Shown piece by piece: positions 42,874 through 64,000 of a DNA stretch of 64,000 nucleotides. The stretch's first letter is position 1; every line of letters starts with the position of its first letter. The position numbers were made by a program, and so were the translations under genes. Below the pieces are notes generated by a model, which saw nothing but the letters and a program-made list of their open reading frames with translations, was not told where the DNA came from and did no database searches. The stretch comes from Candidatus Binatia bacterium (lineage in GTDB: Bacteria > Desulfobacterota > Binatia > HRBIN30): positions 19,539-83,538 of the forward strand of contig JBBRSP010000027.1 of assembly GCA_038245295.1 (NCBI GenBank). The letters run 5' to 3'.

Positions 42874-44022
42874 TCAATCGCGTTGTAGGATATGGATGAC
42901 GCAAACGCTGCCGCCACCCATCATGTGACACAGGCCGATCTTGGCGTCCTTGACCTGGCGCTTGCCGGCTTCGCCGCGCAACTGCAGCGTCGTCTCCCAG
43001 ATCTGCGCCAGACCCGTCGGGCCACCGGGATGACCGCGGGCGATCAGGCCACCATCGGTCGAGACGGCCACACGTCCGTTGAGATCGAACTCATTGTTGT
43101 CGATGCACTTCTCGGCCTCGCCGGGCTTACACAATCCAAGCAGCTCGTAGTACTCGATCTCCTCGATGGCGAACGCGTCGTGCACCTGGACCAGATCGAG
43201 ATCTTCCGGGCCGACGCTGGCTTCCTCGTAGACGTTCTTCGAGGTGTCGATGGTCATCTGCGCCGGTCCAACGACCGGGCCCATGAACAGATGGCCGGGC
43301 GCGTACTTCTCGCTCTGCAGATCGGACGCCGTGACGCGCACGACCGGACGACCGGGGTTGAGCTTCTTCGCGAGATCGGCGCGGCCAACGATGGCGCAAG
43401 CGGCGCCGTCGCCCATCGGGCACGACATCATCGTCGTCAGCGGCCATGCCACCGGGCGCGACGACATGACCTTCTCGTAGGTGATCAACTTGTCGGAGAT
43501 GCGCTGCGCCTTCGGGTTGAGGGCGCCGTTGTTGAAGTTTTTGGCGGCGACCTTGGCGAGGTGTTCGACCTTCATGCCGCGTTCGTGCATGCGGCGTGTC
43601 GCCCACAGCGCGAAGAAGCCGGCCGGCAGGATGGCGTCTTCCATATTCTCCGGCGCCGTGCCGGCCGTGCTGGTCTGGATCATCGTCGTCATCTTGTCGA
43701 AACCGAGGACCATGACGACGTCGTAACGACCCGAGGCCACCTGCATGCAGGCCTCGCGGAAGGCCGCCGAGCCGGTGGCCGAGGCGTTCTCGATACGTTG
43801 CACCGGCAAACCGGTGAGCCCGAACTCTTTCATGACTCGCACCCCGGCCATAACCGGGGCGAAGATATGGCCGACGTAGGCGGCCTGCACATCACGGAAG
43901 GACAGGCCGGCGTCCTTCAACGCTTCCATGCCGGCTTCGCGCGCCATCACATTGTTGGCTCCGCCGTCGTAATACATCCCGAAGCGATGCATCCCGACGC
44001 CGAGAACAGCGACATCCCGCAT
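42874..44022 (-). CDS. Thiolase-superfamily (SCP2-type) protein with Ser at the nucleophile position
   Basis: VLGVGMH.FG, ENASATGS, DGAA, VHDAF, GG...GHP.G.TG, QLRGEAG.RQV. Confidence 0.88.
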   Translation of the reverse strand: MRDVAVLGVGMHRFGMYYDGGANNVMAREAGMEALKDAGLSFRDVQAAYVGHIFAPVMAGVRVMKEFGLTGLPVQRIENASATGSAAFREACMQVASGRYDVVMVLGFDKMTTMIQTSTAGTAPENMEDAILPAGFFALWATRRMHERGMKVEHLAKVAAKNFNNGALNPKAQRISDKLITYEKVMSSRPVAWPLTTMMSCPMGDGAACAIVGRADLAKKLNPGRPVVRVTASDLQSEKYAPGHLFMGPVVGPAQMTIDTSKNVYEEASVGPEDLDLVQVHDAFAIEEIEYYELLGLCKPGEAEKCIDNNEFDLNGRVAVSTDGGLIARGHPGGPTGLAQIWETTLQLRGEAGKRQVKDAKIGLCHMMGGGSVCVIHILQRD

Positions 44023-44024
44023 GA

Positions 44025-44462
44025 TCAGCCCTCCACCGGACGGAAGCGCACGATCACGACATCGCTTCCGGCTTCTTCCCGCATCACATCGAGCTCGGCT
44101 TCCATTGTCTGGCCGATCTTGAAATCACCCTGCTTGCCGGCGAGCGGCAGTTGCACGCGCGGGCCCTGGGTCAAATCGACCTGGCCAACGCCATACCCCT
44201 CGGCGTGCTCCATGTTGCTCGAGCCGAACAGCGGCAGGTGCACGAAGGTGTAACTGTAGAGGGTGCCGCGCGGACCTAGATCGGCGTCGACGACGTCCTC
44301 CGACAGGCAGCTCGCCTTGGCGCAAATCGCCCGCTTCGGGAAATAGTGCTCGCCGCATGTGTTGCACTTGCTGCCAAGCAACCGGGGCGGTTCCTTGGGG
44401 TCTTCGGGGATTGTGAAGTACCCGGCCTTCAGCGGCACGCGCGGCCGCGACTGCGTTGTCAT
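44025..44462 (-). CDS. DUF35-type Zn-ribbon/OB-fold protein
   Basis: CNTCG..YFP...C....C, GTLYSYT, VRFRP. Ends 2 bp before the thiolase start. Confidence 0.9.
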   Translation of the reverse strand: MTTQSRPRVPLKAGYFTIPEDPKEPPRLLGSKCNTCGEHYFPKRAICAKASCLSEDVVDADLGPRGTLYSYTFVHLPLFGSSNMEHAEGYGVGQVDLTQGPRVQLPLAGKQGDFKIGQTMEAELDVMREEAGSDVVIVRFRPVEG

Positions 44463-44552
44463 AGCAGCCCTGGCTAGCCCAACGAACGTTTGTTCGTCAA
44501 GGCAGGGCCGCTTTGCGGTAGTGGGTTCGTTCGATTCCCAAAGGGTAGGCAA

Positions 44553-44862
44553 CGTCATCCCGGCGTACGAGACTGTCGATTTACTCGGAAACCATATTTG
44601 AAACCAAGCAGAGGTATCCGTCATACCGGCGAAAGCCGGTATCTCGCCAGCTTCCGAGGCTTCCAGCAGGGGGAGATCCCGGTTTTCACCGGGACGACGT
44701 TGCTCCACTTTGGTTTTACGACAGTCTCGAAAGCCGGGATCTCATCGAGTGGAAGGCCAAAAATGCTGGGGAGATACCGGCTTTCGCCGGTATGACGGAG
44801 GTGTTTGCGCAGTTTCAAATGATGAATCAGAGAAAATCGACAGTCTCGTTCGCCGGATGACG
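44553..44862. mobile_element. Nested MITE-like elements with GAGACTGTCG ends carrying REP doublets
   Basis: Inner copy 44569-44728 (GAGACTGTCG...CGACAGTCTC) interrupts CGTCATCCCGGC/GAAAGCCGGGATCTC of an opposite-orientation copy whose end is at 44838-44847. Confidence 0.75.
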
Positions 44863-44923
44863 GATCCCCGTGGCCTCGGTTTTCAAATGGATCCACTATC
44901 CCCTTTGTCCCCTCCCGAACCGC

Positions 44924-46231
44924 TTAACCGCCTAACGGCGCCCCCTGTCCGTGCGCCTCGCTGCCGGTGATCAGCCGGGCGCTGCGGTTCCACGTCAGGT
45001 AGTGCCAGGCCCATTGCATCAGAACCAGCGCGCGGTTGTCGAACTGCACGAGAAACATGAGATGAATGAACAGCCAGGCGAGCCACGCCAGCAGACCGGC
45101 GAAGCGCACGCCGAAGATATCGGCGACGGCGGCGGCGCGGCCGATGACCGCCATGCTGCCGCGGTTGTGGTAGCGGAAGGGCGGTGGTGCGGCGGCGCCA
45201 CGTAGGCGCGCGGCAATGACCGTCGCGACGTAGTCGCCTTGTTGCATCGCCACCGGCGCCACGCCGGGAAGCGGCAGCTCGGTGCCATGTGCGTAGTTCG
45301 CCAGATCACCGATGACGAAGATCTCGGGAAACCCGGCAATCCCACAGTCCGGCTCCACAACGACGCGCCCGGCCCGATCAATGGCGACGCCGGTACGTTG
45401 GTGCACGATCACTCCCAGCGGCGAGCCTTGCACACCGGCTGCCCACAGGACGGTGTGGGTTGGGATGATCTCGGTCTGGTCGCCGTGCCGCACGCTGACG
45501 CTGCCTTCTTGCATCGCGAGAACCGCAGTCTGCGTGCGCACGCTAACGCCAATGCGCTCGAGCGCTTTTGCGCCGCGCGCCGACAGGGTTGCCTCATAGC
45601 TGGGAAGTACACGCTCGCCGGCCTCGATCAGCAGCACCTGCGCGTCGGCCGGATTGATGCTGCGGAAGTTCTCGCGCAGCGTGTGGTGCGCCATCTCCGC
45701 CAGGGCGCCCGCCAACTCGGCGCCGGTCGGGCCGGCACCAACGACGAGGAAGGTGAGCAGGGCACGACGCTTGGCGGGATCGGTCTCGCGTTCCGCCGCT
45801 TCGAAGGCCAACAGGATGCGGCGTCGCATCTCCGTGGCGTCCTCGATGGTCTTGAGCCCCGGTGCGAAATGCTGCCAATCGTCGTGGCCAAAGTAGTGAT
45901 GCTGGGCGCCGCTGGCGACTATCAGGCTATCGTACGGAATCTCGCCGTCGTTGAGGCGCACAACCCGCGCCGCGATATCGATGTCGATCACCTCGCCCAG
46001 CACGACACGAACATTCTTCTGCTTTTTGAGGATGGCACGCAGCGGTGCGGCTATATTCGCCGGCGAGAGGGCGCCCGTCGCTACCTGATACAGCAGTGGT
46101 TGAAACAGATGGAAGTTACGGCGATCGACGAGGGTGATGTCGACGGGGGCGTGCTTCAGGCCGCGCACAGCGTGCAGGCCGCCGAAGCCGCCGCCGATCA
46201 CCACGACACGGTGTGGTTGGATCTCAGGCAT
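44924..46231 (-). CDS. ndh: Type II NADH:quinone oxidoreductase
   Basis: GGGFGG, FQPLLYQVATG, GAGPTGAE, WAAGV, IGD, APVAMQQG. Confidence 0.9.
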   Translation of the reverse strand: MPEIQPHRVVVIGGGFGGLHAVRGLKHAPVDITLVDRRNFHLFQPLLYQVATGALSPANIAAPLRAILKKQKNVRVVLGEVIDIDIAARVVRLNDGEIPYDSLIVASGAQHHYFGHDDWQHFAPGLKTIEDATEMRRRILLAFEAAERETDPAKRRALLTFLVVGAGPTGAELAGALAEMAHHTLRENFRSINPADAQVLLIEAGERVLPSYEATLSARGAKALERIGVSVRTQTAVLAMQEGSVSVRHGDQTEIIPTHTVLWAAGVQGSPLGVIVHQRTGVAIDRAGRVVVEPDCGIAGFPEIFVIGDLANYAHGTELPLPGVAPVAMQQGDYVATVIAARLRGAAAPPPFRYHNRGSMAVIGRAAAVADIFGVRFAGLLAWLAWLFIHLMFLVQFDNRALVLMQWAWHYLTWNRSARLITGSEAHGQGAPLGG

Positions 46232-63802: not shown

Positions 63803-64000
63803 GAGACTGTCGATAAACTGAAACGAAGCAACGTCATCCCGGCAAAAGAGTGTGTCGTAAAACTAATAGAGGTTTGAAGAAGTCGAGCGCGCGCGAGGCG
63901 TTTGCGACGAGAACGGGCGATCGTCGAGCGAGCACTTTTGCAAACCGGAGTTGAACTGAGCCGCTACGCGGCACGGCAGCGGCGCTTGCAGACTACCTTA
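63803..64000. mobile_element. Another GAGACTGTCG element, interrupted at its REP loop by a related end (GAGTGTGTCGTAAAA); incomplete at the window edge
   Basis: GAGACTGTCG...GCAACGTCATCCCGGC-AAAA-GAGTGTGTCGTAAAAC; matches the reverse complement of ~44690-44728. Confidence 0.65.

Follow-up and report, generated by a model that had tools for sequence, protein, structure and literature searches.

The window, that is, the whole 64-kb stretch of DNA analysed here (C27:19539-83538 of a 6.63-Mb genome in 129 contigs), contains a repeat locus that is bordered by two minus-strand genes, one for a ChsH2-type OB-fold protein and one for an NDH-2-type oxidoreductase. The locus comprises three layers, namely an outer IS1-like MITE termed C, an older one-ended copy termed B, and the complete element A (Table 1). 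Element A folds at z = -5.7 relative to 200 shuffles, as expected of any inverted-repeat sequence. An Rfam search over positions 44400-45000 gave no match to E = 1, and nothing exceeded shuffles in a scan for promoters and terminators.

Table 1. Repeat features in the window (positions numbered from the first base of the window)
Feature	Position	Strand	Description
Outer element C	44517..44900	not assigned	IS1-like MITE, 154 bp when empty
Terminal IRs of C	44517..44900		GGTAGTGGGT(T/C)CGTT(C/T)GA ... TCAAATGGATCCACTATC
Flanks of C	44509-44516 / 44901-44908		Decayed 8-bp duplication, CGCTTTGC / CCCTTTGT
REP head arm and loop copy	44553..44568	+	CGTCATCCCGGC and GTAC, part of C
Element A	44569..44728	+	Complete 160-bp MITE, subfamily L1-R1, IRs GAGACTGTCG/CGACAGTCTC
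REP2 of A	44619..44645	+	Internal hairpin, CGTCATACCGGC-GAAA-GCCGGTATCTC
REP1 of A	44673..44699	-	Internal hairpin with T-A closing pair, CCGGT-GAAA-ACCGG (minus-strand reading)
Remnant of element B	44729..44847	-	Subfamily L2-R2, orientation opposite to A; loop copy GAAA, REP1 tail arm, 27-bp spacer, intact REP2 (44771-44797), left end
Left-end IR of B	44838-44847
Loop copy and head arm of the second REP of C	44848..44862	-	CGTCATCCGGC-GAAC on the minus strand
Second family locus, R2 end	63803-63847	+	R2 end, REP head and loop
Second family locus, R1-type IR	63848-63859	+	Truncated by another repeat, which reaches the contig end

Layers and history of the locus

A first reading of the letters alone (the sequence-only reading) had proposed a 160-bp element with perfect 10-bp terminal IRs, and this is borne out. 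Both hairpins of the inverted internal REP pair are present as well, but REP1 closes with T-A and is not of the type that had been given. The split REP described around A, CGTCATCCCGGC-GTAC and GAAA-GCCGGGATCTC, exists, but only its right half belongs to B, the left half being part of C; likewise, the second, diverged copy in opposite orientation has the end that had been pointed out, but this end only, the other one and 45 bp being missing. The further REP half next to this end was found as described and belongs to C. The nesting order had to be revised to three layers with a truncated B, the outer element having escaped notice.

In the window, the centre of the REP pair of C is replaced by B and A. 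A precursor-like arrangement is found at C2:233941-234206, where C contains a whole B in place of the pair centre, with GAAC and GTTC as flanks. When A is left out, the window locus aligns with this segment from end to end with a single 45-bp gap, which corresponds to the right end of B plus the REP1 head arm. The history of the locus would thus have started with insertion of C, followed by replacement of the centre of its REP pair by B and by insertion of A into the loop (GAAA) of REP1 of B; subsequently, the 45 bp separating two directly repeated head arms would have disappeared through slippage, through recombination or through an adjacent deletion promoted by A. The mismatched left loop, GTAC, is explained by this loss, because the loop would then be that of C itself (GAAC with one change).

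Contigs from sequencing run X1 match positions 43500-44603 and 44828-46000 without a difference, but X1 is probably the source sample and hence not independent. None of the X1 contig pieces listed spans the interior of the locus, so that only the outer junctions are confirmed. No empty allele was found, and runs X1 and X2 gave no locus-specific empty joint; a joint of 44565 to 44731 in these runs was rejected as an empty allele, since its 21-base side is what any intact REP gives. Among the matches listed for genomes of the same family, the two flanking genes were found at separate places.

The element family and its target

The genome contains 189 exact copies of the IR 10-mer, compared with about 17.5 expected from a second-order Markov model. 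A search with 30-base end sequences from the window, allowing up to 7 mismatches, identified 135 left and 138 right ends, 273 distinct ends in all, distributed over 122 loci; at least three ends are found at 40 loci, exactly three at 26, and a single one at 27. The additional copies with both IRs that the sequence-only reading had predicted were sought genome-wide and are numerous: 75 simple whole copies of 147-163 bp were found, comprising 34 L1-R1 copies (the subfamily of A), 21 L2-R2 copies (that of B) and 20 mixed forms. With a length of 160 bp, perfect 10-bp IRs, no transposase and no Rfam match, A shows the characteristics of a MITE. A long open frame spans 20 of the 75 simple copies versus 79% of random positions, consistent with an intergenic location. 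The median identity to the nearest neighbour is 95%, and only two copies have a neighbour at ≥99%, indicating that the burst was not recent; the family is probably old and now inactive.

The hairpin which serves both as cargo and as target fits the description of CGTC-1 REPs, having a CGTC tag, an 8-bp stem, a 4-base loop and an arrangement in inverted pairs (PMC3733652). The genome contains 304 intact CCGGC-N4-GCCGG sites, 225 of them with a CGTC head. As the sequence-only reading had suggested for the flanks, most ends in the genome-wide tabulation (240/273) adjoin a CGTC-type REP arm (179 head, 61 tail) followed by 4-5 bases; the other 33 lack such an arm by the strict pattern, though some of them abut plainly decayed REPs. 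CCGGC is found at positions -9 to -5 in 181/273 ends.

The 4-bp flanks are identical in 34 of the 75 simple copies, as compared to 14.8% of cross-pairs, and agree within one mismatch in 50 (cross-pairs, 31.6%). Rare flank words, namely TTTA, AGAT, AGTC, CTCC and GGAG, are duplicated exactly, which shows that the duplication is genuine. Those of TTTA, AGAT and AGTC occur at sites with only one good half-site, suggesting that a single CCGGC can position the cut. Thirty-five copies lie between a head arm and a tail arm, and 33 of these show a duplication within one mismatch, in agreement with the earlier proposal of insertion at the REP loop with 4-bp duplication. Another 19 copies have head arms on both sides, the centre of the REP pair being gone; they match the stem-loop replacement known from IS1272 (PMC5678879), although recombination or adjacent deletion gives the same outcome (PMC1525189). 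Flanks differing at two or more of the four bases (25/75 simple copies) are explained only by replacement, deletion or recombination events that we infer.

These products could be accommodated by a transposase dimer that links the two element ends to the positions immediately 3' of CCGGC, using either strand of the CCGGC-N4-GCCGG site. Joining 3' of CCGGC on both strands would duplicate the loop. Cuts in the two hairpins of one pair, or a later deletion by which these become joined, would replace the pair centre and leave inverted flanks.

A 23-base junction pattern was found at two loci only across the sequence collection. Among the genomes searched, the junction pattern is enriched in the host (G000, 134 matches), G037 (76) and G001 (21) only; in 400 genomes of the phylum, single matches in 12 are compatible with chance.

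Mobiliser, cargo and other carriers

Among 40 relatives, the IS1182 loci L019 (G001, from the same family as the host), L027 and L029 and the copies in G013 end in G(A/G)GACTGTCG. L019 codes for a 544-aa IS1182 transposase (311.6 bits with the NCBIfam model NF033551, cut-off 270 bits). In a metagenome search, in which the best 6 of 48 loci were examined for ends, two contigs (L062, L063) were found to encode IS1182 transposases scoring 283.2 and 282.6 bits (78% and 63% identity, respectively); both are full-length elements located in CGTC hairpins. All three transposases have DUF772 and DDE_Tnp_1_6 domains. The left end of the MITE shares 19/19 bases with L019 and 20/21 with L063, and the right end 13/13 and 14/15, the bases common to the right ends of the MITE and L019, L063 and L029 amounting to 13-15. 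L019, L114 and L119 (all G001) as well as L062 and L063 adjoin CGTC REP arms plus loop, and these full-length partners have imperfect or inverted duplications (TTTT/TTCC in L062, inverted flanks in L063). A class-wide protein search at E 1e-60 gave 2/201.

These ends agree with the view of A as a non-autonomous IS1182-type element, and the transposase bounded by family ends that this view calls for exists in one related genome and two metagenomes, but not in the host assembly. In the latter, which is 96.6% complete, no cognate IS1182 transposase with matching ends was detected, the best matches showing 27-29% identity and other IRs; multi-copy IS often drop out of assemblies of this type. The search for a long element bounded by family ends yielded 66 loose candidate pairs, none of which was judged a true pair, and none of the family ends at contig edges carries a transposase. 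The resident IS1182, IS5-like and ISNCY transposases were rejected as mobilisers, since their IRs differ. The mobiliser was consequently inferred from relatives: judging from the shared ends, an IS1182 DDE transposase similar to those of related bacteria has likely acted on the MITE in trans.

The repeat which follows the second family locus (window positions 63860-64000; end AAACTAATAGAGG...) starts 12 bases into the family IR and runs off the contig. It recurs at the end of contig C81 and the start of C48, there after a common CCCCAGGATCGACGATC motif and without the family IR, and was therefore rejected as the autonomous partner; the CCCCAGGATCGACGATC motif also precedes an ISNCY-like transposase gene at C3:194000. 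Two small contigs with IS5-like transposases, C95 and C111, contain genes unlike the rest and are possibly contamination of the bin.

In relatives, IS1182 elements with GGGACTGTCG ends (L049-L055, at least seven copies in G013; L058 in G006) insert off-centre into palindromes of the CCCCCTCCTT...AAGGAGGGGG type. The G013 relative thus inserts with a 4-bp duplication into a different palindrome, so that palindrome targeting is a trait of the clade with variable specificity.

The outer element C has 14 paired copies in the genome, and its 8-bp flanks differ at no more than two positions in 11 of these pairs, compared with 2 of 182 cross-pairs. A 4.1-kb element with C-type ends in G019 (L184, G019:C31:133-4251) is flanked by a perfect 8-bp duplication. 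Its transposase has IS1 as the best NCBIfam match (65.7 bits, below the cut-off of 100) and, as a query, gave no match in the host genome; a 571-aa passenger gene is also present. Judging by its motifs, the passenger resembles a defence nuclease of the DUF262/DUF1524 type. C-type ends carry varied hairpins in relatives.

None of the five full-length IS1182 elements contains a REP, which implies that the cargo was acquired. A, B, C and D all have REP pairs with a 27-bp spacer and a common core. Just outside the pair, the L1 body matches the end of C at 13 of 14 positions (reached in 1 of 2000 shuffles, for a comparison picked by eye), the corresponding similarity of the L2 body to C is not significant (369/2000 shuffles), and the bases that follow REP1 resemble the other end of C. 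An older element of the C type, itself carrying a REP pair, is the probable source of the cargo.

The same IS1182 ends enclose other hairpin pairs both in the host genome (elements of 131 and 192 bp) and in G006, G015 and G037; hairpin-pair cargo is thus common to MITEs of this order, and self-targeting arises where cargo and target coincide. A 140-bp MITE with these ends that targets CGTC loops was seen in G037 (L112, L118, L122, L130); its cargo consists of inverted runs of a six-base repeat (GTACAC/GTACTC/GTACGC). Two other repeated elements of the host, D with about 26 left ends and E with about 13, carry CGTC pairs and are heavily targeted (examples at C25:40990-41190 and C11:196095-196290), E having AATGTCGTTAAGTT IRs and residing in hairpins of the CCCTCACCC type. 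Another host family comprises about 40 near-identical MITEs of about 135 bp with GAGGCTGTCTCAAAAC ends, a CTTCGAC-type hairpin pair as cargo, and a location in loops of a GTAG-tagged hairpin (GTAGGCGCAGGC-N4); it is not self-targeting. Many of its copies lie at contig ends (for example C1:43, C7:174 and C39:83), and since so many contigs are broken by them this is likely the most recently active family.

Self-nesting, target variants and known systems

As the sequence-only reading had held, the element carries its own target and nests in itself. Eight complete nests were found, in which outer and inner lengths differ by 163-164 bp, i.e., one element plus 4, with inner copies in both orientations. 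Of the 45 internal junctions scored, the majority connect ends of unlike type, for example 19 R1 ends inside R2 copies. Four tandem 45-bp units with identical ends may be products of slippage.

Not all of the carried hairpins are hit alike. REP1 closes with T-A in element A and in 66 of 73 R1 ends. This form was interrupted in 2/70 right ends versus 27/60 for the C-G form (Fisher p 3e-9), and among R1 ends alone in 1/66 versus 3/7 (p 0.002), values which overstate the difference because the copies are not independent events; one of the two interrupted T-A hairpins is an identical tandem unit. A tail-side count that includes C- and D-type spacers gave 31 occupied and 46 intact hairpins versus 1 and 53. 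Age does not obviously explain the rarity of T-A interruptions, as REP2 was used alike in both subfamilies (interrupted in 5/47 scored L1 ends, or 48 with one odd arm, versus 7/80 L2 ends; p 0.76) and the divergence from the consensus is similar (4.0% versus 4.8%).

The change from C-G to T-A keeps the pairing but alters both CCGGC half-sites and abolishes the very stable GCGAAAGC mini-hairpin of the C-G form, for which terminal G-C pairs are reported to be essential for stability in the available text of PMC13037366. The avoidance of the T-A form is compatible with a sequence as well as a structure reading of the target, which these data do not separate. By this change of the loop-closing pair, the subfamily of A has largely closed its main landing site, and selection may have fixed it. 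A broader proposal would be that CGTC/NTS hairpin pairs, for which no dedicated transposase is known, ride on MITEs of several IS families, that carriers matching the target nest in themselves, and that selection against interruption fixed the two-base compensatory C-G to T-A change, which keeps the hairpin and removes the target. We regard this as rather doubtful; if true, the T-A change would represent target immunity evolved in the DNA of the element and not through a protein.

Overall, the data very probably reflect a gene-less multi-copy element with IS1182-type ends that inserts into CGTC REP loops with 4-bp duplication, carries a REP pair, nests in itself and was likely moved in trans by an IS1182 transposase, with self-targeting as a by-product, the site of A largely closed and the family probably inactive. 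A positive feedback, in which the two landing sites of each copy account for the high numbers of both family members and REPs, would fit the location of 225 of the 313 scored intact hairpins within family copies, the frequent hits on C-G REP1, and the separately derived, self-nested CGTC-pair carrier with the same ends in G001 (L131). It appears improbable, however, because 127 of the 179 head-adjacent ends lie in hairpins outside the family and only 52 in its own, which are used less per site (REP1 40/143, REP2 12/134) than those in other contexts (C 26/36, D 16/41, E 22/26, unique context 59/108), although in this comparison older sites had longer exposure. Besides, 76 exact junctions are present in G037, where neither of the two element types examined has a CGTC REP, their cargo not being the target; moreover, the youngest-looking family (GAGGCTGTCTC ends) carries a hairpin which is not its insertion target. 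The idea that each insertion creates new landing sites is thus not supported as an engine of spread: the family's own hairpins receive the smaller share of the ends, the subfamily of A carries rarely hit hairpins, and same-ended elements with other cargo also spread. Self-targeting appears as a by-product of the cargo, not a condition for spread. That nests and tandem ends stem mainly from recombination or slippage at short direct repeats, or from misassembly, is very unlikely. One-ended and chimeric copies are indeed common, the tandem 45-bp units are identical, the interior of the window locus is not spanned by any contig piece, and short-read assembly of near-identical repeats may have shuffled interiors; but the exact extra length of the eight nests, the two inner orientations, the unlike inner and outer ends, and the duplication of rare 4-mers speak for repeated transposition, and a median neighbour identity of 95% renders wholesale collapse unlikely.

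The remaining alternative concerns the origin of the cargo only and does not compete with IS1182 mobility. It is possible, though we hold it with reserve, that the REP pair itself is mobile (REPIN-like, and possibly served by an Ssn-type GIY-YIG protein) and colonised small remnants of several IS families; the MITE that multiplied thereafter would by chance have contained the hairpin that its own transposase targets. CGTC pairs are found in no fewer than four unrelated types of element in the genome (A/B, C, D, E), and other hairpin pairs are enclosed by the same IS1182 or C-type ends both here and in relatives. A small single-domain GIY-YIG gene (C22:5444-5665, within C22:5369-5722; L188:370-723), above the Pfam cut-off, lies within an array of CGTC REPs and family copies with 13 CGTC heads within 700 bp, a layout like that of Ssn/NTS which suggests that the pair may have its own means of spread; no useful counterpart of the protein emerged from NCBIfam or PDB. 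Small GIY-YIG genes also occur at C12:172419-172634 and C43:25299-25514, both of them flanked by CTTCGAC-type hairpins (CTCACCCTGAGCCCGTCGAAGGG), which are the cargo of other MITE families in the genome, and for SsnA homologues flanking repeats of this sort have been reported (PMC11893778, in part). GxxExxY genes have no CGTC heads nearby, and the five Y1_Tnp genes of the genome at most one within 700 bp. The available text of PMC11893778 reports no transposase activity for Ssn, however, and the conserved moving unit is not a bare REP pair, as in REPINs, but extends 29-50 bp outside it to the IS1182 IRs. A/B and C have common bases on both sides of the pair, which fits block capture or recombination, and no pair-less A/B element occurs among the 75 simple copies. 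A 70-bp copy of C without the pair (C38) might be taken as an empty carrier, but another 7 bases are missing from it too, and it resembles a deletion product formed at a short repeat.

The constituents of the system that we favour, an IS1182-mobilised MITE with acquired REP cargo, are all of known kinds: REP-targeting IS, hairpin-targeting IS1182 elements, REP dimers in palindromes, and self-inserting MITEs. Hairpin insertion by IS1182 elements is reported second-hand in PMC5678879 and PMC4923244. One of the closest systems is IS1272/TnSha1 of staphylococci, which likewise belongs to the IS1182 DDE family and inserts into hairpins; the model outlined in PMC5678879 distinguishes stem-loop replacement (pathway a) from loop duplication (pathway c), and products of both are seen in the MITE family. 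Tandem duplication of a terminal segment, as found here, is also reported for IS1272. In contrast, IS1272 is described there as having little target sequence specificity and no duplication, whereas the MITE family shows a strong CCGGC-N4-GCCGG consensus and mainly a 4-bp duplication, and A is a non-autonomous miniature which carries its target. How IS1182 elements choose a hairpin, by sequence or by structure, is given in the printed accounts in outline only.

ISPsy8, ISPa11, ISPpu9/10, ISRm22 and ISRm19 (Tobes and Pareja 2006, PMC1525189) as well as IS621 and IS1594 (PMC3184786) insert at a fixed REP position, often the symmetry axis, with a short duplication, as does the MITE, and their imperfect duplications have been ascribed to recombination or adjacent deletion. 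Unlike the MITE, they are full-length, and none is described as IS1182 or as REP-carrying in the available text of these papers. CGTC-1 REPs (Di Nocera 2013, PMC3733652) resemble those of the host in tag, 8-bp stem, 4-base loop, short tail and inverted pairing, and in A. variabilis and H. neapolitanus REP dimers had been observed within longer palindromes; but the portions available of that survey name no dedicated transposase and do not identify the palindromes as MITEs, whereas IS1182 ends, a duplication and a transposase in relatives are found here. The NTS/SRM repeats associated with Ssn nucleases, single-domain GIY-YIG proteins (cd10448) that cut ssDNA close to such hairpins (PMC11893778), flank a small GIY-YIG gene, a layout also present in the host. 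REPINs and RAYTs (PMC3116915, PMC3337134, both in part) share the inverted REP pair with spacer, the non-autonomy and the many copies, but here the moving unit has outer terminal IRs and a DDE-type 4-bp duplication, and no Y1 gene accompanies a CGTC array. The plant MITEs Castaway and Gaijin form multimers by independent insertion, with frequent self-insertion, as observed here; they belong to eukaryotic superfamilies, however, and no captured host hairpin is described as a target in the available text of PMC5172404, which cites Jiang and Wessler 2001.

A bacterial MITE carrying its own REP target was not found in the literature searched, which covered few subscription journals. Newly seen in this genome are the outer IS1-like layer, the likely cargo source, the centre-replacement products and the rarely hit T-A variant. 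With its 273 natural junctions, the genome offers loop-duplication and centre-replacement products of one element side by side with this variant. In the available part of the 2013 survey (PMC3733652), no dedicated transposase was found for CGTC REPs and their mode of spread was left unexplained; the concentration of intact hairpins within one IS1182-derived MITE family provides a concrete, testable route of spread in one lineage.
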